Positions 8,292 through 63,886 of a stretch of DNA of 64,000 nucleotides are shown here, in pieces. The first letter of the stretch is position 1. The number at the start of each line of letters is the position of its first letter. Source of the stretch: Tricharina praecox. Taxonomy: Eukaryota. The position numbers were made by a program, and so were the translations under genes. The stretch spans positions 1-64,000 of the forward strand of contig NW_026250412.1 of the NCBI RefSeq assembly GCF_024521635.1, given 5' to 3'. The notes beneath the pieces are model-generated. The model did not search any database. It was not told the DNA's origin and was given only the letters and a program-made list of their open reading frames with translations.

Positions 8292-8433
8292 CTTACGCTA
8301 TATCCGACATAGTCCCACGACGCTACATCGCCACGCTGGCCTGCGATTCTCTAGCATCCCAACCCACAACAACCATCACCCCCCTCGACAACACCACCAC
8401 ATCCAAACCCCCCTTCGATAAATCCCACCCATC

Positions 8434-21724: not shown

Positions 21725-22060
21725 GCCTTCTTCCCTTCCCTCAATGATGAAGTTCATCGTAGGGATTCTCGCCTCCACAGCCGGCAGCGTAAGATGTGTC
21801 ACGTGATATCACCGAGTGATATCCAAGTACTTACTAGTGTCGCCGTCCCGCCCAAAACAAAAACAAAAACCGTCACCACCCCCGGTGGGTGGCTTGGAAA
21901 CACCAAGAGTTGAATGCAAAGGTCTATTACCTGAGTTGAACACAGAGCTTTCCCTCAACTCCCCTCGTCGATTGCATGGCCTATACCACTAGACCACGCG
22001 CGTGTTTTTTCCGTGCTGAAAACATTAATTCGATGCTTATAGAGTGCTGCGTGCCCCCGC
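21725..22060 (-). repeat. Dispersed repeat copy 1 with a tRNA-like (Pol III A/B box) core
   Basis: The minus strand reads CAGCACGGAAAAAACACGCGCGTGGTCTAGTGGTATAGGC...GTTCAACTC...TTTTTG. It is homologous to 40150-40470. Confidence 0.8.
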
Positions 22061-33195: not shown

Positions 33196-33343
33196 AAGTT
33201 ATACGCGTATAACGTGGTTTACTATCCCCCCACGTTATACGCGGAGGTCTTCTTCCTTTCAGAGCAAAGGTTTTTCCTCCGGCCATTCACGAGAGGCATG
33301 CATGCGCCATTAGCCAAAATGTTAGTGCTCTGGCCGCTGTGCG
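33196..33343 (+). repeat. ~150-bp hairpin-ended dispersed repeat, copy 1
   Basis: Inverted homolog at 41202-41352. Contains the perfect palindrome GTTATACGCGTATAAC and a 14-bp stem CGCGTATAACGTGG/CCACGTTATACGCG. Confidence 0.85.
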
Positions 33344-40149: not shown

Positions 40150-40470
40150 ATGGGGGACACCTACTGTCACTTTGTAAACATCAAATTCATGTCTCCAGCA
40201 CGGAAAAAACCCCCGCGTGGTCTAGTGGTCGGTCTAGGCCTCGCAATCGGCGAGGGGAGTTGAGGGAACGTTCTGACTTCCACCCAGGTAACTGACCTTT
40301 GTATTCAGCTCTTGTGGGTTTCCAAGCCATCCAATGGGGTGGGGAAGGTTTCTGTTTTTATTTTTCACAAGTTTTGGCTGGGCGGAGGTAGCATTAGGTG
40401 GATATCACTCGGCGGTATCACGTGTTATTCCCTTTGATGGACTTGATCATCGATGGAAGGGAGGAAGCAA
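40150..40470 (+). repeat. Dispersed repeat copy 2 with tRNA-like core
   Basis: CAGCACGGAAAAAACCCCCGCGTGGTCTAGTGG...GAGGGGAGTTGAGGGAA...TTTCCAAGCCA...GGATATCACTCGG matches the reverse complement of 21725-22060. Confidence 0.8.
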
Positions 40471-41201
40471 AACGGATAGATGGCGAGTGACACAACTCAC
40501 CCTACAGGGGGGGTAAGTAGATATACAGATGGATCAGGATTGGAAGATGTGTATGTTTTCTCCACCTCCGGTGCGTGGGCGACGTTGTGGCGGAGTGATG
40601 GAGTACATAGTACCTACAATGGCGGTGGGATATGTAGAGTAGGTAGTCTACGGTGCTTTAGTATCCGCGCTCAACCTATTTACTGAGAGTCTGAATAGGT
40701 ACCGCCACGGCTTGATCAAGCCCCGCACTACTAGTTGGGCTCCTCGTCCGCCGCCGAGATACACCATATACTGCTACTAGTAGTAGTACGGTGTACCTGC
40801 TATGATCCACTATTAACCTTCCTTCGCTTAATCACCCGCCTGCTGCCGCCAAACGTCCGTCGATCATCGCTTCGGAAAACGCCTGCTTCCAGACAAGCAC
40901 TGATTCGATCATAGTTAAGCCAGATCTCAGACACAAACGTACATATCACGTATCTGGTTAAACCATGTCAGATTACGGCGTCCGGAGAACATGAAGGATC
41001 TCTCCTCATTTCCGTTATAAGGAGATGGAGAAGTTTCAAGGAGCTCTGTTTTTGAAGGGTCAAGGGCTCGGTCATGCGAACTGTATCTGGGGGTGGAGAT
41101 GTGTGGTCTCGCCGAAGGGTCTATCTCTCAATGGCACACATATTCTGTATATTTAGAAGGGCACGGGCCCGTAGTAAACGAAGAAGCCGACGTCATCCTC
41201 A

Positions 41202-41568
41202 CGCACAGCGGCCAGAGCAACAAAATTTGGCCAATGGCGCATGCATGCCTCAACTGCATGCATGGCCGGAGGAAAGACCTTCGCTCTGAAAGGAAGAAGA
41301 CCTCCGCGCATAATGTGGAGGGATAGTAAACCACGTTATACGCGCATAACTTAGGGCGGTAGTAGACCGAGTTATACCTTCTTTAGTTTTGTTGTTTTCT
41401 CGTCCGATACCGCCTGTAGCCCTGTTTCGGAGGCATGGGCCTTGGCCATGCATGCGGCATGTCTCTCATACATGACATGCATGGCCAGGAGGAAAGACCT
41501 TTGCTCTCTCACAGCAAAGGAAGAAGACTTCCACATATAACTTGAGAGGGTAATAAACCAAGTTATAC
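41202..41568 (-). repeat. Hairpin-ended repeat copy 2 (41202-41352) and partial, more diverged copy 3 (~41478-41568)
   Basis: Aligns by eye with 33196-33343. GGAGGAAAGACCTT...AAAGGAAGAAGAC...TAAACCA.GTTATAC occurs twice. Confidence 0.85.
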
Positions 41569-44052: not shown

Positions 44053-46200
44053 TCAGACCGAGTTATAGTTCATCTTCCCCTTCATCCGTCGGTACGCAAA
44101 CAGGCCGATGATCTTGTCCATCCACAGGGCTGCGGCGGGTTAGCGAGGGTACGGGGAGGGGAAGTGGTGGGGGAGCTTACTGATAAACATGACAATACAC
44201 ACGACGGGGATAGGCCACGGGCTCGCGATGAAGTCATCATACATGAGAGGGTCCGCCTTAATCCTCTCGAGCAGACAGAAGGTGATACCGACGACGAATC
44301 GGAGGGTGACGGCGATGTAATCCCAGACGTCCTTCTTCCTGCGGACGAAGAGGCCGAACAGCCCCAGCATGAAGAAGATGCACCCGAACGCGGTAAAGAA
44401 GTATGTAAACACGAAGCGGTAGACGGCCGTGATGTCCTTTGAGGGATCGTAGTCGGGCGAGAACGGGTCAAGGAACGTCTGCTCGGTCTTGGCCTTCGGC
44501 ACCTTGATCCCGTAGAACTCGGCGTATCCGCGGAACAGGTCCGTCGTCACGTGGCCCAGCGTTGTCTGGTTCTCGACCGACCAGCTGTCGATCGGAAGGT
44601 CCCGCAGATACGGGATCTCGTCCACCAAGAGGTAGTACTGCTTCAGGATCGTCTTCGACGTCTCGTCGTGGTACAGGTACTCCACGTACTTGTCGATAAT
44701 GTCGAGCGTTTGGTTCTTGAGTGCATCGCGGCTCAGCGTGCCGACGTTGTTGAATTCGCGGGAAATCACGTGCTGCGCCTGTAGGTAACTCCAGTAGGTC
44801 GTCCACTGCCGCAGCCCTTCGACGGCGAGCACGATCGACAGGTGGTATGGAAAGTGAAGCACCGCCCAGAACTGCTGTCGGATGGTGCCGTAGTGGACGC
44901 CTCGCGGGGTGTAGTCGAAGTAGAACATGTAGAGCATATACTAGTTTTCCCGTCAGCAGTCAACCCCCCCACAGTGCACACTCCCGGAACAACCAGGGGA
45001 TACTCACAATCACCATCACCGCAGCACCGACGATGCAGAAGATACTCGCGCTCCATCCGCGGCCGTACGCTGATCCCTTTTCGACCACGTTCACGGCCTT
45101 GAGCATGACGATGATGCCCTCGCCGATGACGATGAGCGTCAGGAGTCCCATGCGCTCGACGAGATGCGTCATCTTGAAACTAACAACTTTCCACACCGCC
45201 GACGTCACTAGCACGGCGATAACCTCGACCGCGATCACGATGAACATGGCGATGTAGGCGCGGGGCTGTGTGCCGTTGCGGAACACGAAAAAGAGCTGTT
45301 ACGGAGACTGTCAGTCACTCCAGTCCTATGTCTATGGTGAGGGGGCTCATACACCGAGGTAAACGGCACCAGCGATAAACATCATTGCGCTGTGCAGGAT
45401 CAACGGCAACATCCCCTTGTTGACCCTCCGGGCATACCCGGCGGCGACACCATACTGGATACCCAGTGTGAACCTCGACGCCATGAGGGTGATGGCCATG
45501 AACTGCAAGTTCGCAACGGTGCTGGGAAGCGTGGTATCCATAGGATTCCAGTTGGTCGAGACCGACGCGAACCCGATCATGACGGCGAAGTGGATGGCCT
45601 TCATGCATCGCTCGTAGACGGAGTCGACAGAGAAGCGGATGTCGTACAGCGTGGTCTGCAGCCACGAGAACCACAAGATGATGAAGAAGAAGATGTACGA
45701 GATTAGAGCTGCGCGGAGACACCATCTGTCAGTTAGGGCGGTCCCACCGAGCAACTTGGAGCCCACGAGCTTGCGGGGGGTTCAACTGACTGTTGTAATC
45801 GGTCATGTAATGCACGGAAGTGATGGTGGTCAGATTGGCAACGAAGAACAGATCGTAGAACAGCTCTCCGGAGGTGGCCTCTTCGGCCTCAATCTCCTCG
45901 TAGAGGATCTCGTCTTTCTCGGCCACATTCGACACGTTCTGCACCTTTGTGGGGCCTGCTGCCTCCTCCGTGGTCCGCAGCGGCTTGTGTACGTGCTCGT
46001 CATGGTTCGTGTGGAAGAAGTGGGTGAGAGGACTCGCGATCCACGGAAGGAGCTGGCCTTGCCGCTGCTTCAGGCGCTGTCTAGAGAACGGTGAGTGACT
46101 GGCTGGCTGGTGGTTTCGAAGGTCGAACTTACTGCGCGCCAGCCTTGGGCGTGGGCTTTTGACCGAATGTCATTGCCATTGTAGGACGTCTCATTGCCAT
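44053..46200 (-). CDS. LtrA-like (low temperature requirement A) multi-pass membrane protein, multi-exon
   Basis: EATSGELFYDLFFVANL, W.QTTLYDIRFSVDS and HLVERMGLLTLIVIGEG motifs, many hydrophobic helices and canonical introns. Ends ...KMNYNSV*. The start is uncertain because two acceptor AGs near 46080 give different first-exon frames. Confidence 0.88.
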
Positions 46201-47773
46201 TGTAGGGCGTGTTGTGCTCGGAGTTGCTGCTGTAGATGCTGACTCTGCCCCGCTGGTGGGATCGACTGTGTGAACGGGCTGGCTGGCTGAATACTCGGCG
46301 GGGAGATGAACTCGGTCTTATAATTCCTTCCCCGTCGTCAAAGTAAAGCAAAGCGGAGTAGCCCGAAAGATTTCGGCAGACAGCTGTGGGGTGGTTACTC
46401 CTAGGCACCTGTGTTGTGTCGAGCTAGCAGCTTCACCGGTGGGGTCGATGCCAGTACACACATACAGGTTGGGGCTTGTCTCTAATTCAGCGCAGTCAGC
46501 ACGATTACATCCCGGTGTCGCGCCAATGTAATATCGGTTTTGTCAGGCCTAGTCTGGTCTCGTCTGGCGGCCGTCGTGGTGGTGGTGATGGTTCCCTGAG
46601 GAAAGTCGTTTCAATCCGAGCTAGTCAACTGTTAACCAACTACCAGTAATAGTAGCAGATGTCCACGCTAGTTAGCCATGCAACTTATCACAGGTCCCAG
46701 CAGGTCTCATATGTACCGTAGCTATCTTACTTACATATTCGTTTACCTTGAATAAAGTCGACGGGGTGAAAGGTAGGCACATGGCGTTCTGTCATTGGTG
46801 ACGGACCGACGGGCGTGGATTTGTTGTTGGCGGGGTTTTCGCGCGTCACTCCCTGTGAATATTCCCCTCCAATATGCTTTTCCGGCGAGCTCAGGGTCTC
46901 ACTTTTCCCCGCTCCATTTCGGCAGTGCGAGACCAGCCCTCCAAAAGATAGAATTCGACTGTGAATGGCAATTGTTCATCTCTGGTGAGTCATGTCTCTC
47001 AGTTCTAACTAACTACCCTGTGTAGAATAGTAGAGTGGAGTACTCGGCAACTCAGCCCTGCCGACCGGGATTCGGCAAAACGACATTCGAAACAGAAATC
47101 CCCAAAGGACATACAAACCCAACAGCCAACCCCAGCATTACACCTGCCACTTCTCTAAGCCCTGGGACCAATTGACCATGCCAATCACGCAGCGGGTATA
47201 AACAGATAGAGTACAATATACCTACATAAACTATATGCAGTACCGGCATCATATGCCGCCCTCAGAATTGTAGATTCCTACTAGCAGTTAGTTTCCTACA
47301 TACAGCCCTACATACCCAGCTGAAAGCCCTAAAATAGCGCACCCGTCGTGGAGTCGTGGATCGTGGTCTGTCGGGAACCGAGCCCTACAGCACTGCCCAG
47401 CCCGTTGCCCGCAGATGTTCTCTATGGTGCCGGACACTTTAACGGGCTAGCGTCTTGGTATATCCAATGGAGGTGGGCCCGCCAAGATGTCGAGTGCGAA
47501 CATATGATCCCACCAAAACCTATGGCGGTAAACCAATATTTCAGCCAGTTTTTGTTCGATTAACTTGACTTTGGTTCGTCCTATTGGGCTACTCACCACC
47601 ACTTCAGCCGTGCCCTCGTAGACCCACTTTTTTCTTCCGTGTGTATAAGTTGTTTGGGTACTCATCAATTTCACTCGATCTGTACTAATATGGCTAGCGT
47701 CACGTTTAATAGGGTCTAGCGTATGTCCAATGGCATACCCCCCTCACACAAAATACCCGACTTTTCAAGTCCC

Positions 47774-47889
47774 ACTCCTCTCCACCAACCACCAATAATT
47801 TAATTTTGAAACCGTAGAACCGTTCTAGAAATACTACTCTATCATTCTACGGTTCCAAATAAATTCTTTTTGTTGTGGTGGAGAGGAGT
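47774..47889. repeat. Fold-back / MITE-like inverted repeat (~46-bp arms)
   Basis: ACTCCTCTCCACCA...AACCGTAGAA pairs with TTCTACGGTT...TGGTGGAGAGGAGT. Confidence 0.75.
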
Positions 47890-50800
47890 AGCGGTCGGCG
47901 CTGGGGGTCATTTTTCGTCCCTCGCTTGCCCGTTAAAGCGTCCGGCACCATACATCACCCCCGCCCCCAGCCATCGTGACAATTAACCTCCCCGGCACTG
48001 GTAGGCACAGGTAGGTACCCTATTCTCCCTCGGTGAGAAAACTCAAATCCGTCATACATACGGTAGGAATGCTCGCTCGCACGCTCGCTCGCGGCTAACG
48101 ATCCATGCACGGGCAGGCCGCAGGCAGCAGCAGGAGAGCTGCAGCCGTGTAATTACAATTCAGTTTCAACCGGCGGCGGTCGATGGCGCAGACACGAATG
48201 CTACCGGCCCATATACAATAGCACTTCGCGACGGCTCGGCGTACTCTACATAAGTAAGAAACTTTTGTCACTGGGGGTCGGCGGTCGGCGGTCGCGACTC
48301 GCGCATGATCTTGGCCGTCATCGCTTGGCGGGTGTAATCCGCTTCTATCATAGGTAGTAGGTACGCTACGTTACGTCCGTGCGTGCATTTTCACTCGCCC
48401 ACTCGAGCGAATGCTGAGTTTGACTGAGTGGCTGACTGGTTGCTTGATTGACTAAATGCGCCGCTGCGGCACTGCGGCGCTGCGGGGTAGTATTTGGAGT
48501 ATTATCGGGCTATTTTCGGCGGGCGGGCGTCGCGCGGGAGTGGGGCGTCGGCAACCGAACTGAGATTTAGAGATTCGGAGATCGAGAGCTGAGAATCTGA
48601 GATCGAGAGCTGAAGAAGAAAGAAAGGAAGAAAGAAAGAAGAAAGACAGAGTTCGCCCGTCGCTTACCTCACATAAATCGCTTTCGAAGTGCAAAAACAA
48701 CGCCACCAATTGCGTGCTACGTTGCTATGCACACCCACAGCCGACCAATTGGTGATGATGATAATAATGATGATGAGGAAACAAGCTTTTTATTTTGAGC
48801 CGGGGGCATGCCGCGTGCGTTCCTCCTGCCGTGCGACGGGCTCCCCCAAATACGGTACTTACTATACATACGCGGTGCAGTTGAATCTCAAGGCCGTCGC
48901 GACGGGTGGATAAATGCCGTGATCAGTAAACGGAATACGGAATACGGTATGCACATATCTACTCGTACGGAGCTTTTCAGTGAGCGCAGATGCTCGCGCG
49001 GCCGCCGGCGGCCTGACATCAGCGTTGCGCTGGCACTGTGGTGGTGGTCGTGGTGGTGGTCGTGTTCGTGGCTCCAGGTGCCCCCCGCATCCTGTTTGAT
49101 CGATCGAAAGCTCGCGACCAGAAAAGATCATTAATTCAGATTCGGCTTCAGATTCAGCTGAAGTCGACGACCGTGTTGCGGTATACGCTGCAACAACGTG
49201 CGCTACTACTACTACTAGTAGTACTACTAGTAATAGTAGTACGATGGTAGGTACTAGGTACTCGCTCCTCGGTGATCTGCAGGTTGCTGCCTATTCGTGC
49301 ATATTCCCTATGGCTGACCGGAAACCAGCGGCCAGCCAGCGCTGTTACAGGTGTACCGTAATAACTATATCTACATACTCTATTCCTTTCGACACTCAGG
49401 TGTCTGGTTGGATACCGTATTTAGCGTGAGGACATGGCTGCTTATGTACATACCGTGCGGTACATTATCGGTACATAACGACTGGAGACTGGAGTCTCGG
49501 GGGGGCCGGCGGGGACGCTTCAACGTTCTTCGTCCTCGCCCTCGTGAGTCGTGCCGGCTTCTGCAGTACCGCAAGTCTGCAACCCTCTCCCGGCCGGTTC
49601 TGCGTCGTCGCTGCTGAGTGTGTTCTTATCAAACACACAATTTCAAAAGCATGCGCGCCAGACCCTGACCAGCGACCGCCGATTGGTCTGTAGTCGGTGA
49701 TCGGTGGCGTCCGGAAGCGAGTGGAGTGGAGTTGAGTGGCTGTGCGCCCCCCAGTCGGGTTATCGGACTATCGGGCCTCCCCTGCCAGCTTACCCCCGCC
49801 AAAACATCTTGGCCTCTGCACTGCGATTCAGCCCTAAGCTTGGCGGCTTGGCCTTCAGCTGTGCCGGTGCAACTTTCATTTCCCGTGGCTTGGTCGGGAG
49901 TCGGGTGGGGGCTTGGAGTGCATTGAGTGGCGTTCATCCCTGCCTCGCTGCTCCCCTGCAGAATACCTTATGTACTGAACAATATGTAGAAGCGCCACGA
50001 CGTATTTTGTGCAGAAGATTGTGCAGAAGACCAGAAGTTCAGCAGTCTTGGCAACAACTTCAGCTTCAACTTACACGATTATATCTTCTGGCGCATGCAG
50101 TCCGGCAAACGCCAGTTCCTTGGCGGCTCTGTCCGTGATGTCTACATATGCGATGGCCATCGATGATCGGATCGGGCCGAATCTTCGGGGTCGACAGGCG
50201 TGGTGCACGGGGGAGGGAGGGATCATGCCTCGCTCGGCTTGCCGGTTGAATGCTGGATGCGGGTGATATTGGGATTCGGGATTCGGGATCCCGGCCCATC
50301 CGTTCTGCGCGGATCGTACAGTAAAGGCCTTCTTCCTTCGTCGTGGCTACCGACTTGGTCTCAGGTACCCGCTTTCTTCTCAGGTACCCGCTTTCTTCGT
50401 TCTTCTTCGACCAGGCCCTCGAAGTCTCTACCCGACTACCTACACGTAACCGACGGCCCGACAGACGCCACGATCTATATACCGGTAGGTCGCTGGTATT
50501 GCGACTGAACAAACGAAATCGACGAATGCATAGCATAATGACGCAGCGCAGGAATGGAGACTCTGTGCCTTCTACATAGAAGAGGGATTATCGCTTCAAG
50601 GAACAGGTAGGAACATGAGCACTCAGCACTAACGAGGTTTGTTGGTCTGTTTGTCTGTAGATCTAGTAAAGGCCGAGAGAGAATACTATATAGTTTATTG
50701 ACATAGCCTTACTATGATAGTTACTAGACTATGGCGAACAAAACTGCATACCCAACCATGCCTGCCTGTTGTATGCCAGTACTCTGACGGGGAGCGAGCT

Positions 50801-51075
50801 GGGAAGGGCCATCGGCACGTGACGGGCTGACACTGCACGTGAGGAGGCTGGAGGAGGCTGGAGGAGGCTTGCGGTATGATGGATGGCTGGAGTCCACACC
50901 GAGAACGAATCTGTTTCTGGCAGCGCTCGCAGACAGCTACACACGGTGGTTTCCGAGCGGGAGATAGACGGAGAGCATTTTTCTGATCACATCACACTTT
51001 CGTTGAGTCCGGCAGTGCCGTGCATCACTTACCGCACTGTCGCCGCTGTCGACGGTCGAGGTAATGTGAAGATGA

Positions 51076-52736
51076 TAGCGGGACTGCGACATAGCGAGCG
51101 TCAGTACTACTACGCATAGCTAGGCGAATCGGCGGCTCTCTCGCAAGCTTTTGAAGCACAAATCACAATTCAAAGAGCAAGCCCTAACGAGTGATCAGCG
51201 AACAGGAAGACCCGAAGAAGCCGACGCTAGCGTATGAGAGTCTTAGCGCCGCCAACAAAACCCTACTTCCTCGACACCTTCCTCTACATCTTCCTCTCTT
51301 CCTCTACATCTTCCTCCCTTCTTCCTCCCTTCCTCTCATCTTTTTGAAAAAACACTAACATACCATCAACACAACAATATCATCAGCCCCCGGTGGCCTA
51401 ACTTGAAGAACTTCTGGATCCTTCAGCAATGCATCGATCAAGTACGCTTCGCGACAGCTTCCTCGCGCCACCTGGGGATTTCGCCGTTGGCCCATTCACT
51501 AAAATGTTGGGGGTCACGGCTCCCCAGGTGGCTACAGACTACGCATCAGCTGTTCTCCGACAGAGGATATCCGATCCTCGCACCAGCGTCGCTGCTGGTG
51601 CCGGCGCTTGAGTCGGAGAACCTCGAGCCGTGGAAGAAGATCAGGTCTGCGGGTTTCCCCGCAGAGTCCTGACCATCAGCACTGCTGTGCTGTTGTTTCC
51701 CGGCTGAGTGAGTATTTCCCTCCGATTCAACAGTACTCTTGTGGTGTGGTGGCCGACTTCGAACGAACGAAAACTAACGTCAAGAAGGAGTTACTCGAGA
51801 GAGTATAGACACTGTTCGTGCCGGGTCGCGGTAAGAACCTGCACACCACCATGAGGCATCTGATGATGATATGGTCGCTGACTGCTAGAAGCTAGTAGGA
51901 TAATAGAGCGTACCCGTGGCCTGCGGGCCGAGCTTCGTGCCCATAGCCTTCACATCAAAGCAACCACTGCACTCAATCCCGACTCAAGCGAAACATAAAA
52001 ATATGATGAAGATACCGCTCTTCAGAACCTTCGAACGCATCAAAAAGGTTGCCAAGAAGGCAGCAAGGGCGTCGGTGCTTTTCGTGCCGAAGCGTGGTAT
52101 GTACTATCTGCTCACCACTCACCATTCGGCATTTAATCATGGTCGCTGACTGCTAGAAGCTGGTCGGATGCCGAAGGGCACTCGCAGCCTGTGGGCTGAC
52201 TCGCGTGAGCGAGACCAGATGGATGGTGCGTCTCTCGAGACGCATATGGGATGGTAGGGAGTACTAGTACTCCTATCAAAGCGGGTCTTGGTGAAGCTAG
52301 TGAGGAGAAGGGTGCTTCTCCTGACAAACTACTTCCACGTAAGCATCCTCGAAACACGAACCTCGGCAGTGGAGACACCAATCGCTGACATGAGTACTCA
52401 TAGCATGAGCGACTACATTCTAGTCGCGGCCCTTGAAGAAAGCTTTTTACTTGAAAGCTTTTTTTTTGGCTTAATGATAGTTTTTTCCTTGCTGCTTGCA
52501 GCGAATAATGTTGTTTCTTTGGCTGCTGGCGAGAGGATGAAATTGTTCGTTTACGAGCTTGCTCTCTTCGGTTGCGCTGCTTGGCTTCACGGCAGTGCTT
52601 CATTGTTGAATTCACTTCACTCCCTACAGCCGGTATTAGTGATTCAAGAAGATATTTTTACACAGCCTACTATGTCATGAACTAGATAATCTTAAGGCTT
52701 CTTGATCTGCAGCCGATATCGGCATCGTCATCGATC
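51076..52736 (+). repeat. Left arm of large inverted duplication (near-identical 51076-52399, diverged ~52400-52736)
   Basis: The same ORFs recur on the opposite strand at 61615-62364. The inner part matches 60140-60470 and 60617-60635. Confidence 0.97.
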
Positions 52737-53131
52737 CGACGTGCTGTCGCCAGCACTCGCCAGTGTCGTAATATGTCACTCGTTACTTAGTCGCTTACGC
52801 GGTCATGGCGGCGGGAAGCACTGGCCACCTACCACCCCTCTTTTCTGTCTTCCCTCGAGGCTTTCACAATCCAGTCTATACACAATAACAATACTTATTC
52901 ACACATTCCAACAGCCAGTCCGCCGGAAGGAGCGAGTGCCGCCAGAACCGAGACCCTCAGCCTACAGGTCGGCTCTATGAAAATCACAGATTGCACCCCG
53001 GAAGCTATTCGTACACTTCGAAGGTTGCTTCTCCTCGCTTTGGATATTCGTGCATTTCGTCATACTAATAATACAGATTGTATGTACGAGTTCCTGTCCC
53101 CGTATGCACATCCCCGCTGCTTCCTATCTAC

Positions 53132-55031
<1,900 letters not shown>

Positions 55032-55078
55032 CGGCGCTCGTGATGCATTGAGTTCAGGTTCGAGTTGGAGCTGGAAAT

Positions 55079-55213
55079 CCGGGGAAGCTGGGGAATCTGG
55101 GGAATCTGGGGTAATCAAGGTTAAGGTTATCTCATGTCGCCTGCTGAAACTCGGTAAATGACAGGTCCTCGGCCGGGATTTGTCCGGGGAAATAACCATG
55201 GATTGATCCGGGG
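55079..55213. promoter_or_regulatory. Cluster of six SYGGRG (CreA/Cre1-type) motifs upstream of the esterase
   Basis: CCGGGG 55079, CTGGGG 55088, 55097 and 55106 (9-bp period), CCGGGG 55184 and 55208. Confidence 0.5.
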
Positions 55214-55818
55214 TAATTGACATCTCGGCTAGAGTGGGATTATATCCATGTCGAGCTCTGGCTATGTACCTAGATGAATTTACCTTTTCCGAAGCGATAT
55301 GAAAGCGATGGTGATGGCATAGTATGCAGAGATCTAGACCGATGGCAGCCAGGCAGCGTCGGTTACGGAACGCAGGATCTGCGACGCGCGGCTGCTATGT
55401 ACTTGAAATTGGAATGCGGGGGACCTGGCATGTTCGGTCGATCGCCATCAGCAGCGAGATCTTTCATAAATCCCCGAAGTTGATTGCAACTCGTGCTATC
55501 TCGTGCCTACATACTGCAATGGAGACGAAGCGCCCTAGACCATTTCGGTACGGTCTAGAGTGCTTGACACATTCTCCCACAGAGTGTCATTTTTTTTTCC
55601 ATTCATCTCTTATTGTGTGTGATCTTCCTTGCTTAGATTCATACACACGCAATCCGTGTAAGCCACAACCAAGTTCATTGCAGTGACCTCTCTTCCCGAC
55701 AGTGTCTCTTATCATCCCGTCAAATTCGCATGTGAAAATCGAGTGCTCTGCCATAGAACTCGTCACATGCTAGATAAAGCGAGTGATTGACCATGCACCG
55801 ATCTCCGTAACGACACAC

Positions 55819-55915
55819 TGACGTAAGTCACCCACCCGCTATCGAACATCATGACGTCGACGGCATCCACGACCGCGATCATACCGACCGCCACAGCCCG
55901 ACCGCCGTATATAAA
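55819..55915 (+). promoter_or_regulatory. Two CRE/ATF-like sites and a TATA box of the small gene at 56012
   Basis: TGACGTAA 55819, TGACGTCG 55852, TATATAAA 55908, followed by a CA-rich leader. Confidence 0.55.
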
Positions 55916-56011
55916 TTATACCTGTTCATCAACCGTTCCATTCATCAACTGCACTCACTTCTGAAACTCACCACCCAATTACCACTCCCACATCACACAC
56001 GCACACACAGA

Positions 56012-56342
56012 ATGTCCACCTCATCAACCAACCACCAAAACTCCGCCATCCGCGGCGGCGCCGGCGCAACGCGTACTCCAGCCAATACCGTGACCGATCC
56101 TGACTCGAAGACGTCGACCGGGGTTCTGGGAGGGATGTTTTCGAGCGAAAAGCCGGTGCGTGTCTCCGAGTGTGTAAGGGAGTAATGATGGAGATGGGAT
56201 GGGATCGAGCTGATTTGTGATGTGCGTATAGGGCGCGCCGAAACGGCCGGATAACGACGACGCTTCGAAAAATACGTCCGGGCCGGGACTGCTCGGAAAT
56301 CTCGCGTCAGGTATCAGGGATCAGCTGGGGGCTTCGAAGTAG
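56012..56342 (+). CDS. 84-aa small hydrophilic protein; join(56012..56155,56232..56342)
   Basis: ATG follows a TATA box and CA-rich leader. The phase-0 intron GTGCGT...GCTGAT...TAG leaves an open frame to TAG at 56340. Confidence 0.75.
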
Positions 56343-56938
56343 TGCTGGGGGACACATGGGGGAGACGCTCGTCGGTCGGTGCTGTAAGATACAAGTGTAC
56401 TATATATTTCTGAATGAATCCAGTCTTCATCATCCTTACGGACCGTGTCTGTTTCGACCTGAACACTCAGCTGTTGTGCAAACTAATCCCTGGACAGACC
56501 CGTCGCTAATCCCCCTTCCTCCGTGCAAGTTGCTAGGATACTGACATGATGTCATGGATGCGTCTTCATCTCTACCTCAACTGAGGAGCGTGTCTGGTGC
56601 AGGACGAAAGGCTGCTACCTCACCGGCCATTAATACCTATCACAATAATTGCCGCCATCCAACGGTTAAACGCCAAAACTGCAGGTCCGGATACGCATTC
56701 AAAGGGATATGTCGCGCTCGCAGCTTGAACCGAGAATCCATGGAAAGGTGCGCACCAGGTGCTATATGATCAACCGCTGATCTCTTCAGTGATAGATCTC
56801 CCCAAGACGTATTTACGCTCACATCACGAATGGTACCTTTCGCAGGAACATGGCGTGGCATACTAACAAACCCGTACGCTTTGCAGATGGGATTCACTCT
56901 AGAAGTTTCACGGGCAGCTCTCGAATCTTCCAACCAAA

Positions 56939-58265
56939 TCAATTACTCCCTCGCCTTCCACTCAGCGGCACCATTTCCTCGCCACCGAGCGGACTCCTCC
57001 TGCCTTCCGTCTGGCGACTACCACTCTCCAACTCTCTTGTCGCAAAGCCTCTCTGCCTCCCCCTCGGCTTCCTCACATATGCTTCGACCACAGTCCCGGT
57101 ATCCCCACTATTCTCGGCGTCCCGCGACAGATACCCGGCCAACCGCCGTATCCCCGGGATAACCCGCAGCGACGGCAAAGACCCCGCCATCAGCGCGAAC
57201 GAGAACTCGACGTTCATCCAGATCCCGCTCTTCGCTACCGAGTACGTAAAGTCCACCTCGTCCTTGGTGTACGCCAGCGTCGTGAAGCGGATCAGCGAGG
57301 CAGCGCAGGCGATGGTTCCTGGTGGTGGGTGTTAGCCGGCCGTTACGAATTAGCGGAGGCGGGTGGGGACAAACCAAGTCCGAACAATCCAATCAACGGA
57401 ATCCTTTCCCTTAGCGGGACTTTCAGCCTCCACAGCGGGCGCAACGGGAGGACGAGGATGATCGCGTCCGTCACGAACATCACGACGGCCTGATAGACGG
57501 TGATGGCAAACAAGGTGTTTTTGCCCAAACACCTGGCGCCCTCGACCGGCTCCCACATGGCGCGCACGGGCGAGCACTGGAATGTCAACGGGAGCTGCCC
57601 GGTGATCGTGAACACCACGAGGAACACTACCAGTCCTCGCCCGGTCTTTTGGATGATGGCATCAGGGAAGTGCCGCATCAGGAAGACGAGGAGGCTGATC
57701 TTCACCGAGAGCGCGACGTAGAGGTAGCTACAGAGCGCGGCGAAGTAGATCTGCTGGTGCACGTGGTTAGTTAGGGTAGTGCGGGTGATGGTGGGTGGGA
57801 TGTGCGGGTGAGAACTTTGAACAGTGTCTGCAGAGTCCTGGAGGAGACGTTCCATAGATGCTCGCCTACGCCGTGGTAGGTGGTGGCGATGGTGAGGGCC
57901 GCGAATAGCGAGTTCATTATCTACATACGGAGGGACGGTCAGCTTCGTCGACGATAGTCTGGGTGGGGAGGAATAGGCACCATTGCGATAATTACCATCA
58001 CATCATCGATGCCGAATCTGTGCACCACGAAATACCGTACAACCAGCTATACTTGGCGCAAGCGGTCAGCACCCCCCTTCTACAGCGGCCCGCTCGAACG
58101 AACGCAAGTCCTACATACCCTCATAGAACATATGACGAAAGCCATCGCGGCCACTACCGCAATCGCCACACGCGTCTCCGTCAAGATATCATCTTGCGGC
58201 AGCGGCAGCTGCCGGCCCTCCACTTGATGAACGCGAATGTCGTGCTCGGTAGGAGGTAGGTACAT
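56939..58265 (-). CDS. PTH11-like / fungal rhodopsin-domain integral membrane protein, multi-exon
   Basis: R...R......FGIDD, YHGVGEHLW, KISLLVFLMRHF, FQCSPVRAMW, TDAIILVLPLRPLWRLK, LFGLG...SLIR and W..VEFSFALMAGSLPSLR motifs. Confidence 0.92.
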
Positions 58266-59752
58266 TACAGTGGGTAGCCGGAGGGTGATCTGATGGCCAG
58301 AGTGATGTCGACCGACGACGACGCCGCCATGGACGGAGCTGCGAGAGTGCTGTGGGAACGAAATTCCGCAGGCACCCTTCTAGTGAAAACCGATCGCCCT
58401 CAGCAATCCGTTTACGTATAGGTAGTAGAGTACCTAGCCGACACCCTCCCCCCCCCCCCCCCCCCCCCCCCCCCCACCCCCGAGAAATGATAAATCCAAG
58501 GGGTCGGGTGGCAACCCGCATTCTTCAGGCAGGGTTGATCGGGTGTGAAGATTATAATTTATATGGCGAGGTTGTTATAGCCGCCGTAAAGGCCAAAACA
58601 GGGTACTGGGCCGGCCGGTGGTCCGTGCGAGCCGATCCGCGACATGACTGGCTCTGGCGGGTCTCACTTCCAGCTAGCGGCCACGCCAGCGGTGGAAATG
58701 ATGGTCTCGTGGGGGAAGCGGGGAGCCATCGGGAGGCGCATGGTCTAATATTCCGCCGCAACTTATGTACAAACACGGGTGTCCGAGCCGCTGGGCCGCA
58801 TGAGCATGTCGAGCTTCACATGCCGAAAGCTGGAACCGATGGCAAACTCCGCAATGCGCAGCGACAAGAGCTGAGGGGCTCATAATACATGCCCTCCGAT
58901 GCCAACCCCAGGCCGCGGGGTCGATTGGAACGACGCATCGCGGACGTCCGTCAGGTACCTATTCGATTTCCCGGGGAAAAATAGACGTGAAACATGAGAT
59001 CAGATGCCCGCTAGACGACGACGACGACCACGACCACGACCACGAAGCGATCAGAGATTCAGAGGTGCTCCTGTCCGGATCATCCGCCTGGCCTCGGGGA
59101 AGCGGATTGGATTGGATTGAGAATTCGGAGGAAAGGAAATCGATACTCTACATATGATTTGCCTACATACAAAGTGATGCCGCCTACAGCGCTCGTGCAC
59201 GGACGTTAGCCCCCACTCCGCGTGTCTCATCTCACAGTGATGGCCAAACGTCCATACCCAATCATGCCCGTCCCAATCCAGGGAGTTGGCGCAAGCGAAA
59301 AAAGCTTCGCCGAGTTCGAGCGAATACGACGACTACTAGTAGTACTAGTACATAGAGTATGATGCGGTTTGTCGGTTGTGCCGTCAACCGTCCTCCGCAA
59401 CGAGGACCTTGGGGGAAAGGTCGGCCCAGTTCGACGTCTGTCCGGCCCGGCGGATTCGCAACTTCATATGTTCTAGAATTGATCCCCAATTGCGGTTGAG
59501 GATCAGCATCATTCACCACTTGTTGTCACATGCTCCTACACCCCCCCTTGTCTGGCAGTACCTGACTCGCCCCCGAACCACAAAAAAACATTCTCGTCAC
59601 AATCCATCGCGCATCTACTAGAGAGTAGTCCATAGAATATAGAGTACCTAGAATCAACTTCTAATTTCCACAAAGACAGGCTCGGACGATGAGTGGCGGA
59701 TATCGCAACCACTGCGCAGTGCGCAGAGCAGTCTGTTCAGAGCCGAAGCCTG

Positions 59753-60138
59753 AAGGACCAAACGCGCATATTACGGTAGTCGCTCTCAACCCACTCTAAA
59801 ATACCAATCCGTGCGCATATCGGGACCTAAAGCGCAGGGGGAGGTGAACGGAATCCTCCACGCCCCGGTCCTTCGGAATAATAGTGCGGTGCGGCTGACA
59901 TTTATAGCCTACGGGATCACTCGCTGTTCACGTGACGGCCTATCGATCCTATGACACGTTGGTCGTGCGGAGGCCCAAATCCAACGGTATGGCACAGCTT
60001 CATGGAACATTTCAGAGCGGTACTCATGCTCACTGTACTGCTCCTGACGTTTTGACGGAATGCGCACCATAGGTACCTAGCCGAATAGTCCACGGAGTGG
60101 ATCATCAAATATCACGCACTATACACGGAGTAACGGAA
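59753..60138 (+). repeat. ~390-bp diverged direct repeat, copy 1
   Basis: TCGCTCTCAACCCACTCTAAA...ATCGGGACCTAAAG...AGCCTACGGGATCACTCGCTGTT...CACGGAGTAACGGAA recurs at 62736-63141. Confidence 0.92.
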
Positions 60139-60139
60139 T

Positions 60140-62691
60140 GATAAACGACGACGCCAACATGGGCTGCAGATCAAAGAGCCTCGAGACTATCTAGTTTATG
60201 GTATAGTAGGCTGTGTACTATGTAGAAATATCTTCTTGGTTTGTATGTAATCACTACTACCGGCTGGAGGGAGTAGAGTGAAGTCAACAATCACGCACTG
60301 CCGTGAAGCTAAGAAGCGCAACCGAACAGACCAAGCTCGCCAACGAACAATTTCATCCTCTCGCTAGCAGCGAAAGAGACAAAATTATTCGCTGCAAGCA
60401 GCAAGGAAAAAACTATCATTAAGCCAAAAAAAAGCTTTCAAAAAGCTTTCTTTGAGGGCCTCGACTATATAGTCGAATAGTTCCCCTCCGGACGACCAAC
60501 AAACGTTGGAATCTGTATAACCAACCTGTCAGCGGATGTGACCAGCTTCGGGAACTTGGAAGCTCCGTCTCGATGGGAGTAGTACTCACTACCATATCAT
60601 GGTCTTCCGGCAATGATCGCTCATGCTATGAGTACGCGATGACGACTGAATACTATTTGCACGCCGGGAGGTGACGAGATGGTAAACACAGTTTGGTGGC
60701 TTTCCGCCGAAGGCAATACGGCAACGGAGTGTCACGCGATTGGATCGTGCAGAAAAACAGACCCCCAGTTTCACATTCAAATACTAAAACGATTCCCGTA
60801 ACCCAAGTGTAATATTTCCCCAACGCCAACGCAAATCCCTTGTCCAAAGTATAAAATTTCCCAAACGCCAACGCAAATCCTTTGTCCAAAATATAAAATT
60901 TCCCAACCGCCAATGTAACTCTCTTGCTCAGAGGATAGGATGTCCTAGTAGTACTACTTCATGGTATGATGGATTCAAGATGTTGTAAGCTATGACCACG
61001 TTCGCCGGTTTCTAGGTCTGCCCCGATGACTCGTTGGCGGTTGTCCATTGTTTATGTCGCCCAGGACTCTCGTTTGGACTACATGCTCACAGTCAGTTCA
61101 AGCTGCTGAAGAAGGACGTAATTTGCCTTACCATGAAACTGCGGTGTAGGCGTGATTGCTGGACCCGCAAGCTGGCGGTTCGTGAGACGTCTGCGCCTCG
61201 GGGCACGATCATCGGGGGTAGCCGTATCGGCCGCACGAGCTGCGAACGCCATCCACCGTTGTACAGCGGCATTGTCGGTTCGCTCGGGATTGCTTGCAGA
61301 TGCAAGCTCGGGGGCTGTTGCATTCGTGAGGGTGTTCTCCACGGGACTGGTTGGGTCGGGCCGCGAGTCCTCATGTCAGCGATTGGTGTCTCCACTGCCG
61401 AGGTTCGTGTTTCGAGGATGCTTACGTGGAAGTAGTTTGTCAGGAGAAGCACCCTTCTCCTCACTAGCTTCACCAAGACCCGCTTTGATAGGAGTACTAG
61501 TACTCCCTACCATCCCATATGCGTCTCGAGAGACGCACCATCCATCTGGTCTCGCTCACGCGAGTCAGCCCACAGGCTGCGAGTTCCCTTCGGCATCCGA
61601 CCAGCTTCTAGCAGTCAGCGACCATGATTAAATGCCGAATGGTGAGTGGTGAGCAGATAGTACATACCACGCTTCGGCACGAAAAGCACCGACGCCCTTG
61701 CTGCCTTCTTGGCAACCTTTTTGATGCGTTCGAAGGTTCTGAAGAGCGGTATCTTCATCATATTTTTATGTTTCGCTTGAGTCGGGATTGAGTGCGGTGG
61801 TTGCTTTGATGTGAAGGCTATGGGCACGAAGCTCGGCCCGCAGGCCACGGGTACGCTCTATTATCCTACTAGCTTCTAGCAGTCAGCGACCATATCATCA
61901 TCATCAGATGCCTCATGGTGGTGTGCAGGTTCTTACCGCGACCCGGCACGAACAGTGTCTATACTCTCTCGAGTAACTCCTTCTTGACGTTAGTTTTCGT
62001 TCGTTCGAAGTCGGCCACCACACCACAAGAGTACTGTTGAATCGGAGGGAAATACTCACTCAGCCGGGAAACAACAGCACAGCAGTGCTGATGGTCAGGA
62101 CTCTGCGGGGAAACCCGCAGACCTGATCTTCTTCCACGGCTCGAGGTTCTCCGACTCAAGCGCCGGCACCAGCAGCGACGCTGGTGCGAGGATCGGATAT
62201 CCTCTGTCGGAGAACAGCTGATGCGTAGTCTGTAGCCACCTGGGGAGCCGTGACCCCCAACATTTTAGTGAATGGGCCAACGGCGAAATCCCCAGGTGGC
62301 GCGAGGAAGCTGTCGCGAAGCGTACTTGATCGATGCATTGCTGAAGGATCCAGAAGTTCTTCAAGTTAGGCCACCGGGGGCTGATGATATTGTTGTGTTG
62401 ATGGTATGTTAGTGTTTTTTCAAAAAGATGAGAGGAAGGGAGGAAGAAGGGAGGAAGATGTAGAGGAAGAGAGGAAGATGTAGAGGAAGGTGTCGAGGAA
62501 GTAGGGTTTTGTTGGCGGCGCTAAGACTCTCATACGCTAGCGTCGGCTTCTTCGGGTCTTCCTGTTCGCTGATCACTCGTTAGGGCTTGCTCTTTGAATT
62601 GTGATTTGTGCTTCAAAAGCTTGCGAGAGAGCCGCCGATTCGCCTAGCTATGCGTAGTAGTACTGACGCTCGCTATGTCGCAGTCCCGCTA
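60140..62691 (-). repeat. Right arm of large inverted duplication (longer copy, with ~0.9 kb mostly absent from the left arm)
   Basis: 61365-62691 is the near-exact reverse complement of 51076-52399. 60140-60470 is a diverged reverse complement of ~52420-52736. Confidence 0.97.
60801..60914. repeat. 42-bp tandem repeat, ~2.7 copies
   Basis: TCCAAAGTATAAAATTTCCCAAACGCCAACGCAAATCCTTTG-like units. Confidence 0.85.
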
Positions 62692-62735
62692 GCGTCGGCT
62701 TCATTAGGTGCGCCAGTTCGCCGATCCACTGGCAA

Positions 62736-63141
62736 AAGGACCACACGTGCTTACGGTAATCGCTCTCAACCCACTCTAAATACAAATCCTTGCCCATATC
62801 GGGACCTAAAGTGCAGGGCGAGGTGAACGGAATTCTCCATGCACTATAGTAGTCCTTTGGTACAATTGCGCAGACGGCGAGGCCGACATGTAGATATACA
62901 GCCTACGGGATCACTCGCTGTTAACGTGATGGCGTGTCGATACCCACCATGCCGCGTTAGTCGTGCAGAGGCCGAAATCCAATGGTATGGCGCAGCTTCA
63001 TGGAGCACCTCCGTGCAATACTCATGCTCGCTGCACTGCGCCTGACGTTTTGACGAAATGCGCACCGCCGCATAGGTAGCCGAACTGTCCACGGAACGAA
63101 TCTTTGTATAGATATCACTCACTATGCACGGAGTAACGGAA
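62736..63141 (+). repeat. ~400-bp diverged direct repeat, copy 2
   Basis: Aligns along its whole length with 59753-60138. Confidence 0.92.
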
Positions 63142-63886
63142 ATTAATCTCATTCCAGAATCACACAGAGCTGACATTCCTGCTCGAAAACTAATGGATAG
63201 TACTTGTTGGAGATGTCATTCTTGTCACCCAACCCAACCTCGTAGAATTCATTCTCCCGTAGAATTATCAACAGCGAGTGACATTCAATGAACAGGACAG
63301 GACAGCTAATCGTCTAGGCCACAAGCATGGCCGGCCAGATACAGTATATGTGATGTATCATGTATTCCCCACAGCAAAGTGAGTGTATGAGGACGATATC
63401 CAATGGTTTGAGGCATCTTAGGCAATCCTATTTCCGCTAAGGTACACACAGAAAAACGCAGAATCCCTCATCCTCCACCGTAAACCGTAAACCGCAAGCT
63501 ACCCAGCCCCTAATCCGCTAGTGTGAATTGCAGCATGTCGCATTCGTAGTTGTCGGTTCCGGTGGATGCATCGCGAAATACCCGCTGTAGGTAACGACAT
63601 GTATTTCGAGTCTGGGAGGGCCAATAAGCGATATGGGAGACACGCGGGAAGGGGGAGTGCCTACCTGTGTTGCGAATTTATTCTGGAGCGCACATAACAA
63701 GAGCTTAGAGGGGGACCGGCCACGCCCCCTCTCCCCCAGCCGACAGCCGGAAAGTTGAAACCAGCCGACCCTGGGACCGATGAACACAAACTAACAAGCA
63801 AAGCAGCCATGCAGAAAGAAAATGAAATCAAAAGAGAGTATGTGCGTGAGGATGTTTTGGGTGACATCAGGGTTGGCGAGTGATAC

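Follow-up and report, generated by a model that had tools for sequence, protein, structure and literature searches.

The three genes between two 1.3-kb inverted arms in Tricharina praecox are bracketed by what is probably (roughly 0.68) an old local inverted duplication, whose arms were recently homogenised by arm-to-arm recombination or gene conversion, without an enzyme of a mobile element. The locus lies in the 64,000 nucleotides analysed here (the window; positions 1 to 64,000 of contig NW_026250412.1, assembly GCF_024521635.1) and comprises the following features.

51076..52399, plus strand: left arm (A), starting with TA; sequence that is non-coding or decayed and shows intron-like signals
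52394..52411, plus strand: 18-nt block (m), inward continuation of the repeat; 18/18 with the inverted copy at 60618-60635
52410..52736, plus strand: B, inner and old section of the inverted duplication; 82% to 60140-60475
52762..52915, no strand assigned: short dispersed repeat, unrelated to the arms; takes 32 of the 45 matches from the interior search
53132..55031, minus strand: carboxylesterase (PF00135), 532 aa, 5 introns, intact; single-copy at the DNA level
56012..56342, plus strand: small gene, open two-exon model with 1 intron, 84 aa
56939..58265, minus strand: PTH11-like membrane protein (fungal rhodopsin domain, PF20684), 357-358 aa open, 4 introns
59719..60138, plus strand: C, old direct repeat; 78% to C' just outside the right arm
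60140..60475, minus strand: B', partner of B, followed by ~140 nt (60476-60617) absent from the left copy
60618..60635, minus strand: m', exact partner of 52394-52411
60636..61370, no strand assigned: segment X, 735 nt, present in the right copy only, between m' and the right arm
61365..62691, minus strand: right arm (A'), ending with TA; 99.5% identity to the left arm
62687..63141, plus strand: right flank, a 40-nt copy followed by C' (62708-63141)

Aligned as reverse complements over 1327 columns, the arms are 99.5% identical and differ by three substitutions (left-arm positions 51968 and 52179 and, at the inner edge, 52395) and one 3-nt indel (the right arm has one more TGA unit, following left 51860). 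These are the differences listed in the earlier note, which had recognised the near-identical inverted arms from the letters of the window. Its arm limits stood in part: both arms are real, but the repeat does not end at 52399, and homology of lower identity goes further inward. The left arm also holds an old internal duplication (51757-51931 against 52029-52199, 66%). Among the 28 repeat pairs of at least 100 nt in 294,000 bases of the contig, the arms are the sole pair above 95% identity. A genome-wide search with the arm, which the earlier note had proposed for copy number, returned two matches in 38 Mb, the arms themselves. For two other inverted pairs in the window, the same search had 57 and 44 matches, with identities of 72-94%; diverged families are thus visible to it. 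Independent double insertion of a high-copy repeat, raised by the earlier note as a competing origin of the arms, is ruled out by the two matches, and it is the other two inverted pairs that are dispersed families.

The arms appear to be the young portion of an inverted duplication that is itself old, because the 18-nt block and a block of ~330 nt (82%) beyond the left arm recur on the right past segment X. In register, homology past the arm reads 60/60, a 735-nt gap, 18/18, a ~140-nt gap, 168/185 and 59/72, and B includes an identical run of 50 nt at 52460-52509. Segment X is a dispersed relic; its borders carry a 6-nt imperfect direct repeat, and parts of it have 71-86% homologues on contigs C15, C24 and C39. 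The 18-nt block plus one base had no match in JGI metagenome contigs. On the minus strand, one frame at 60388-60528 contains what we take to be a kinase-like word, which belonged to no Pfam family and had no paralogue beyond B.

Soil-metagenome contigs allow the age of the arm identity to be compared with the divergence between strains. The four runs (X1-X4) are mixed soil communities from one study, the run shares of X3 (0.12) and X4 (0.11) are small, and the comparison rests on the 40 of 301 variants and 32 of 468 contig pieces that were listed. Outside the arm, the X2 strain is 1.1% diverged from the reference (45/4133 letters in seven listed records), and at all 15 arm positions listed, its arm contig carries a letter found in neither reference arm; eight of these 15 letters also occur in run X4. 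The arms are therefore more alike within the genome (3 substitutions) than either is to X2 (15 listed sites), with both arms resolved in one genome only. At a divergence of 1.1%, three or fewer differences in 1319 positions have a probability of 3e-4, and arm-to-arm and strain divergence differ by Fisher's test (p = 0.007). All four arm junction types are present in the contigs, spread over different runs, the right outer junction being read via C' mapping onto C. In X4, which is more diverged than X2, and in the reference-like X3, the arm's outer end is joined to C-type sequence, that is, to the right flank. Both arm locations look older than the strain split. Uncovered stretches in X1 (around 61207-61284, with a depth of 0 at 61207 and 61284, which leaves the junction of arm and segment X uncovered) and in X4 (50468-50963) were not counted as absence.

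We infer gene conversion as the cause of the arm identity, and the following order of events. A local inverted segmental duplication of at least 1.66 kb (arm, 18-nt block and B) in non-coding or decayed DNA would have come to bracket three ordinary genes. The copies would then have diverged, to 82% in B, and gained two indels, segment X (735 nt) and the stretch of ~140 nt. Homologous recombination within the chromosome would recently have overwritten one arm with the other in the lineage leading to this genome, and the tract would have ended at the outer limit of homology and at the segment X indel, which would be why a 99.5% arm lies beside an 82% block. A crossover between the arms would invert the 9-kb interior and leave the sequence within 1.3 kb of the breakpoints unaltered, so that little effect on the genes would be expected. 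No element-encoded enzyme would be needed for any of these steps.

The arms themselves gave no sign of such an enzyme. No Pfam family was found in them at E <= 1 (19 queries, read through with X), and open reading frames of the arm and segment X had only chance-level matches to Pfam (best E 0.073). The one arm frame of six that was searched had no relatives among 1.84 billion representatives, none of 77 candidates was a relative of the 141-aa open reading frame of the arm, and the genome matches of two arm open reading frames were the two arms only. An apparent third-position bias of the strain differences did not stand up, since none of the six frames made more than 6 of the 15 silent. Repeat-induced point mutation (RIP) was likewise rejected for the arm, whose dinucleotide indices (0.88 and 1.13) are close to those of the window (0.76 and 1.08). 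Six-frame searches of 46000-52740, 59600-61364 and 62600-63500 gave no Pfam match. The profile searches in and beside the arms thus bear out the earlier observation that no transposase or recombinase is recognisable.

The three genes reported between the arms (carboxylesterase, small protein and PTH11-like protein) were all recovered as open splice models. One of four open models of the carboxylesterase is identical to the database protein P0001 of Tricharina praecox, and a hydrophobic N-terminus, judged by eye, predicts that the enzyme is secreted. Contigs C10 and C85 hold paralogues of the PTH11-like protein (68-82%); the interior between the arms is single-copy and occurs at one location in the genome. 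Within 5 kb to the left of the arm no Pfam family was found, and on the right the nearest one, and the only one up to 7 kb past the window, was FAD_binding_4 in an FAD-binding oxidase ~3-4 kb out; no obvious promoter would therefore be swapped by flipping. JGI metagenome contigs contain 58 carboxylesterase loci, with 25-59% identity in the best segment, none of which matched any of seven neighbouring window regions (tblastn). These loci are therefore non-orthologous and uninformative on gene order.

It is possible, at somewhat less than even odds, that both orientations of the interior exist. Flipped-type joints occur in two runs, with one contig each (X2, 52399 to 61364; X4, 52460 to 60440). 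The X2 contig (1726 nt) runs unbranched from 51005, with 71 nt of left flank, through the arm to 61364 on the opposite strand. This path from left flank over the arm to the right inner side is, however, no proof of orientation, because collapsed short-read contigs give the same graph either way. Of the mobile or flipping 11.6-kb unit proposed in the earlier note, the flip is thus reasonable and hinted at by the two joints, but the mobile element is without support.

The X2 contig also bears on an alternative history, in which the second arm is new. A recent inversion of the interior, through staggered breaks or template switching, would have placed a copy of the arm at the other breakpoint, in addition to the older B/B' and C/C' scars, and X2 would represent an ancestor with a single arm and the opposite orientation. 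The unbroken X2 path would be the expectation for a single-arm, flipped haplotype, since two collapsed arms should break both ends of the contig unless two branches were lost. Short microhomologies lie at the ends of both indels that distinguish the left copy, and inverted duplications are reported as common at inversion breakpoints in Drosophila (17 of 29; PMC1885836). However, the depth of the X2 arm contig is 8.8, against 3.5-5.3 in the seven other listed records (in X1 11.9 against 5.4-9.9 in seven), contig depth not being a copy number. In addition, the right-flank junction of the arm is already present in X4, and the 18-nt block and B follow on from the inner end of the arm in register, as if all had been duplicated together. 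We regard a new second arm as unlikely beside the preferred history of old duplication and recent conversion.

Transposition fares considerably worse. The proposal would be an 11.6-kb non-autonomous cut-and-paste element comparable to ToxTA, with 1.3-kb terminal inverted repeats (TIRs), a TA target duplication and a three-gene cargo. ToxTA is described as a 14-kb non-autonomous fungal element with TA duplication (PMC12506042), and here TA stands at both outer ends (51076-51077 and 62690-62691). Homology past the outer ends is not above chance, as the observed score is equalled or exceeded by 63-179 of 200 shuffles in four window sizes. The earlier note had seen no clear target duplication; direct repeats at the ends are indeed 2-mers only, but with TA at both ends a target duplication is possible. 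However, 4.3% of the dinucleotides here are TA, and as it is its own reverse complement, a TA target duplication is indistinguishable from the arm's own end. The terminal 16-mer has two exact occurrences (the arms) and 15 further ones at <=2 mismatches, compared with 25 for a reversed control, and the terminal 200 nt have three genome matches, all at this locus (the arms and the right flank). The single location of the interior also speaks against transposition. Furthermore, the right-flank 40-nt copy (80% to arm-internal 62535-62574) and the C/C' repeat straddle the right outer end, which insertion would not give, and arms of 1.32 kb that continue inward as older homology differ from the reported Tc1/mariner TIRs of 20-30 bp and up to 169 bp (PMC12506042). 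We therefore consider such an element very improbable. The odds are just as long for a combined version, in which a non-autonomous 11.6-kb DNA element with a true TA target duplication and unusually long TIRs (1.3 kb) would have arisen out of the local inverted duplication. Mobilised in trans by an unrecognised transposase, it would carry the predicted secreted esterase and the PTH11-like receptor and be elsewhere or missing in other strains. In the search for an empty site, which covered the left outer end, none of the 24 loose ends listed out of 241 (four runs, one study) lay at 51075.

The composite or non-autonomous mobile element suggested by the earlier note was hence not supported: the arms belong to an older, longer duplication, and we found neither a transposase nor a terminus family around the single-copy interior. 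A composite transposon was rejected as well, as a single arm contains no inverted match within itself and the arms have no further copies, no Pfam family (0 in 19 queries) and no relatives (1 of 6 frames). The described hallmark of Starships is a DUF3435 tyrosine-recombinase captain at the 5' edge (PMC12506042). A Starship was discarded here, with no captain seen, the six-frame Pfam search of arms and flanks empty and only FAD_binding_4 in the first 7 kb past the window.

A regulated flip/flop switch in the style of the Ogataea mating-type locus, in which orientation would set the expression of the enclosed genes, is highly improbable. The geometry and the two flipped-type joints fit, but no mating-type or regulatory gene was recognised among the carboxylesterase, the 84-aa open reading frame and the PTH11-like gene, the Pfam search found no recombinase, and the same contig graph arises from both orientations when the arms collapse. 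We give equally little credence to an assembly artefact (one false arm, or two diverged copies made alike by polishing): the four junctions never occur together in one run, but each arm has its own differences, the metagenome contigs contain all four junction types, and the reference-like X1 has a contig break at 51076, where the pieces overlap by 30 nt as would happen at a branch of the graph, every letter of its collapsed arm contig being found in one or other reference arm. The metagenome contigs thus did not bear out the concern that reads might fail to support two copies.

Old duplication followed by recent conversion, if true, would add one more case, in a pezizomycete, of a known process, inverted-repeat conversion with possible inversion, with a clear tract boundary located at an indel. 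The locus would be usable as a marker of ectopic recombination in wild strains and would advise caution against taking near-identical inverted repeats for the ends of a transposon. It opens no long-standing question, and there is no sign that orientation affects the three genes; its weight would rise with an empty site, a second location or orientation-dependent expression.

Among known systems, ToxTA (formerly ToxhAT) of wheat pathogens is similar in size, lacks its own transposase and has TA at both ends. As described, however, its TIRs are 74 bp long and it occurs at several locations, with empty sites, unlike the 1.3-kb arms with older homology inside, the one location and the absence of a terminus family seen here (PMC12506042). 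The mating-type locus of Ogataea polymorpha likewise has a segment between inverted repeats that is invertible by recombination, but its reported inversion is starvation-induced and puts MAT genes under centromeric silencing, and no such genes or context were seen here (PMC5720833, PMC4238957). The flip/flop (FF) region of Saccharomyces chromosome XIV, with 4-kb arms that carry sporulation genes, 15 enclosed genes and a centromere nearby, has been proven to occur in both orientations across a genus (Salzberg et al. 2022, PMC9731477). It shows the same pattern as the present locus in that unique genes lie between near-identical inverted copies, that no dedicated recombinase is described, that copies are closer within a strain than between strains (here with both arms resolved in one genome) and that an insertion in one copy interrupts the similarity in some FF strains; in contrast, the arms studied here are 1.3 kb long and contain no gene that could be recognised, and there are only hints of a polymorphism in orientation (PMC9731477). 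In Candida albicans, inversions of ~4-103 kb lie between long inverted repeats that, like our arms, are kb-scale and highly identical with spacers of several kb or more, although most repeats there hold open reading frames and the inversions were PCR-confirmed, neither of which applies here (Todd et al. 2019, PMC6591007). Human inverted segmental duplications, between which recurrent inversion was shown by genotyping, share with our locus, where inversion is only a possibility, a short near-identical stretch within a more diverged duplication, exemplified there by 782 bp at 99.9% inside 7-kb copies at 94% (Aguado et al. 2014, PMC3961182).

The left arm (51076-52399) and the right arm (61365-62691) are inverted copies with 99.5% identity over 1327 alignment columns, and the differences that the earlier note had read from the sequence were all recovered: one TGA unit, two internal substitutions (located at 51968 and 52179) and a third at the inner edge (52395). 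A whole-genome search returned exactly two arm copies, which rules out a high-copy arm family. The same search detected 72-94% matches of two other window repeats, so a diverged arm family would have shown. One is an 88% inverted pair (33196-33346 and 41199-41352), both copies belonging to a dispersed ~160-nt family with 57 genome matches; the other is a 76% inverted pair (21800-22046 and 40168-40424) from a dispersed family of 300-420 nt, with at least 44 matches among 40 scored candidates out of 147. The contig contains 28 repeat pairs of at least 100 nt in 294,000 bases, of which the arms are the sole pair above 95%. An old tandem duplication (C2:118978-125912, about 3.3-3.7 kb, 68-83% identity) that contains a small internal inversion (121146-121447 versus 125159-124833) indicates local duplication and micro-inversion elsewhere on this contig too.

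The genome comprises 38.4 Mb in 104 contigs, and the window is the initial 64 kb of a 1.2-Mb contig. The source organism is a pezizomycete fungus. Introns interrupt the window genes, and the carboxylesterase between the arms has the same sequence as P0001, a database protein labelled Tricharina praecox; its next-closest relatives come from Sphaerosporella, Maublancomyces, and Pyronema. The three-gene block recognized earlier was confirmed, all three genes being intact by splice model.

Genes between the arms and their nearest recognizable neighbours
44140-46100, minus strand: LtrA-like membrane protein, nearest recognizable left neighbour of the arms
55031-53132, minus strand: carboxylesterase, 532 aa (one of four open models equals P0001)
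56012-56342: two-exon ORF, 84 aa
58265-56939: PTH11-like protein, 357-358 aa, PF20684
L003 (DNA right of the window), about 2700-3030, minus strand: FAD-binding (PF01565) oxidase, nearest recognizable right neighbour of the arms

The interior between the arms occurs once in the genome, and 32 of 45 matches in the search with this interior land on a short dispersed repeat (52762-52915). Elsewhere in the window, a long ORF (8422-9987, plus strand) has, by eye, a J-domain-like start with an HPD motif.

The arm may be a decayed gene, as it carries intron-like signals and an internal duplication at 66% identity. Intron-like stretches lie on the plus strand at 51708-51787, 51831-51891, 52097-52159, and 52339-52403, two of them within the internal duplication, and on the minus strand at 51363-51184; no open spliced model is evident in the arm. 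None of 19 queries from six frames of the arm plus inner block B, the right block, and the right flank matched Pfam, the one arm frame of six that was searched had no relatives among 1.84 billion representatives, and none of 77 candidates for the longest arm ORF was a relative. Arm differences between strains give no clear sign of coding constraint, with 6 of 15 silent at most. The earlier observation that no transposase or recombinase is recognizable also holds for the neighbouring 5 kb to the left and 7 kb beyond the window. A frame word at 60388-60528 (minus strand) resembles the hinge region of CAMK-type kinases; this reading was rejected, with no Pfam family and no paralogue beyond B.

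While the arms stand as first delimited, the repeat does not end at 52399; homology continues inward at lower identity. Aligned with the reversed right side, the left inner side matches at 60 of 60 positions at the arm end, followed by a 735-nt gap that corresponds to segment X (60636-61370) of the right copy, an 18 of 18 match (52394-52411 with 60635-60618), a further ~140 nt in the right copy, and block B (52410-52736 with 60140-60475). Block B is 82% identical overall (168/185 and 59/72 in the aligned segments, 52460-52509 being an unbroken 50-nt identity), and the dispersed repeat at 52762-52915 starts 25 nt past its inner end. Segment X has a 6-nt imperfect direct repeat at its borders and was either inserted into the right copy or lost from the left; homologues of parts of it (71-86%) occur on three other contigs, which makes it an old dispersed relic. 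It contains three tandem 42-nt units (60794-60919), and one contig of strain X2 skips 60779-60985 in this region. An old direct repeat (78%; C at 59719-60138, C' at 62708-63141) frames the right block, and the outer end of the right arm is straddled by a 40-nt copy of arm-internal sequence, so that related sequence lies on either side of this arm. The flanks past the outer ends show no homology to each other (63-179 of 200 shuffles reach the score). In all, the inverted duplication measures at least 1.66 kb: the arms form its outer portion, and its inner portion is much older.

Four soil-metagenome runs from one study (strains X1-X4) contain part of the region. Their short-read contigs were mapped on 46500-61364, which contains the left arm only, and the results rest on the listed 40 of 301 variant rows, 24 of 241 loose ends, and 32 of 468 contig pieces. 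X1 is nearly identical to the reference; its flank contig stops 30 nt inside the arm, and its arm contig starts at 51076, as at a graph branch. This collapsed contig (51076-52489) differs from the reference solely by right-arm letters at all three internal differences and continues into B, the left inner junction, a combination reflecting either chance (1 in 8) or further conversion. Arm contig depth was 11.9 in X1 (5.4-9.9 in seven other listed records) and 8.8 in X2 (versus 3.5-5.3), depth not being equivalent to copy number. In X2, which diverges from the reference by 1.1% (45 of 4133 letters, seven records), a single contig of 1726 nt leads from 51005 across the arm into 61364 on the opposite strand. 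In X3 and X4, position 51076 is connected with opposite-strand sequence of the C type, a link that represents the right outer junction as read through C'; X4 also connects B-like sequence at 52460 with 60440. Outside the assembly, each of the four arm junction types is present, spread over different runs, and the two-copy inverted repeat is real.

X2 differs at 15 listed arm positions, and at every one of them the two reference arms share one letter, which places the arm likeness after the X2 split; three arm-arm substitutions are fewer than expected at 1.1% (P = 3e-4; Fisher p = 0.007). X4 shares eight of these 15 X2 letters, their polarity not being certain. That both sites were occupied earlier is suggested by the left junction in X2, the right junction in X4, and the 82% block. 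Recent gene conversion would explain both young likeness and old occupation: it would have re-matched the outer part of an old local inverted duplication, within a tract bounded outside by the end of homology and inside by X. We give a probability of roughly two in three that the arms are the recently converted part of such a duplication.

Conversion between inverted repeats keeps the structure and crossover inverts the spacer, which is a standard view (PMC6895784). The repeat would be passive and possibly invertible. Flipping by arm recombination, as proposed earlier, is in line with the flipped-type joints in X2 and X4. These joints do not prove inversion, however, since a collapsed repeat yields the same graph whichever the orientation, and contigs can cross it when low-depth branches are lost; we tentatively consider it slightly less than an even chance that both orientations exist in the population.

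A rather unlikely alternative is that the second arm arose by recent duplication at a breakpoint and that X2 is a single-arm, flipped haplotype. The X2 contig does pass both arm ends unbroken, and in Drosophila 17 of 29 inversions reportedly have inverted breakpoint duplications (PMC1885836), but the doubled X2 depth and the junction of arm and right flank in X4 speak against it, neither firmly. The proposal that the 11.6-kb unit is a composite or non-autonomous mobile element fared worse and is very improbable. No clear target-site duplication had been noted; TA at both outer ends is a candidate, otherwise only two other 2-mers occur, at slid boundaries. TA recalls ToxTA, a 14-kb non-autonomous fungal element with a TA duplication and 74-bp TIRs (PMC12506042), yet TA is palindromic and constitutes 4.3% of dinucleotides. 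The terminal 16-mer had 15 further matches at two mismatches (25 for a control), the terminal 200 nt match this locus only, the unit has one location in the genome, and related sequence straddles its right end. A review cautions that many repeat pairs flanking a spacer are really segmental duplications to which the name of non-autonomous element has been wrongly given (PMC5718144). Composite transposon, Starship, and mating-type switch all failed on the features tested.

The listed titles and abstract openings on this species and its genome contain nothing about the locus. As a recently converted part of an old duplication, the arms would place it in a known kind of homogenized inverted repeat, the process not being new. 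Comparable cases are the long inverted repeats found at inversions in Candida albicans (PMC6591007) and the near-identical stretches that lie inside older human duplications (PMC3961182). The locus would behave as the Saccharomyces FF region does, where the inverted repeats are described as homogenized within strains and the orientation shifts over evolutionary, not laboratory, time; homogenized arms are the feature found here, orientation polymorphism and genes in the arms being features of the FF region (PMC9731477).
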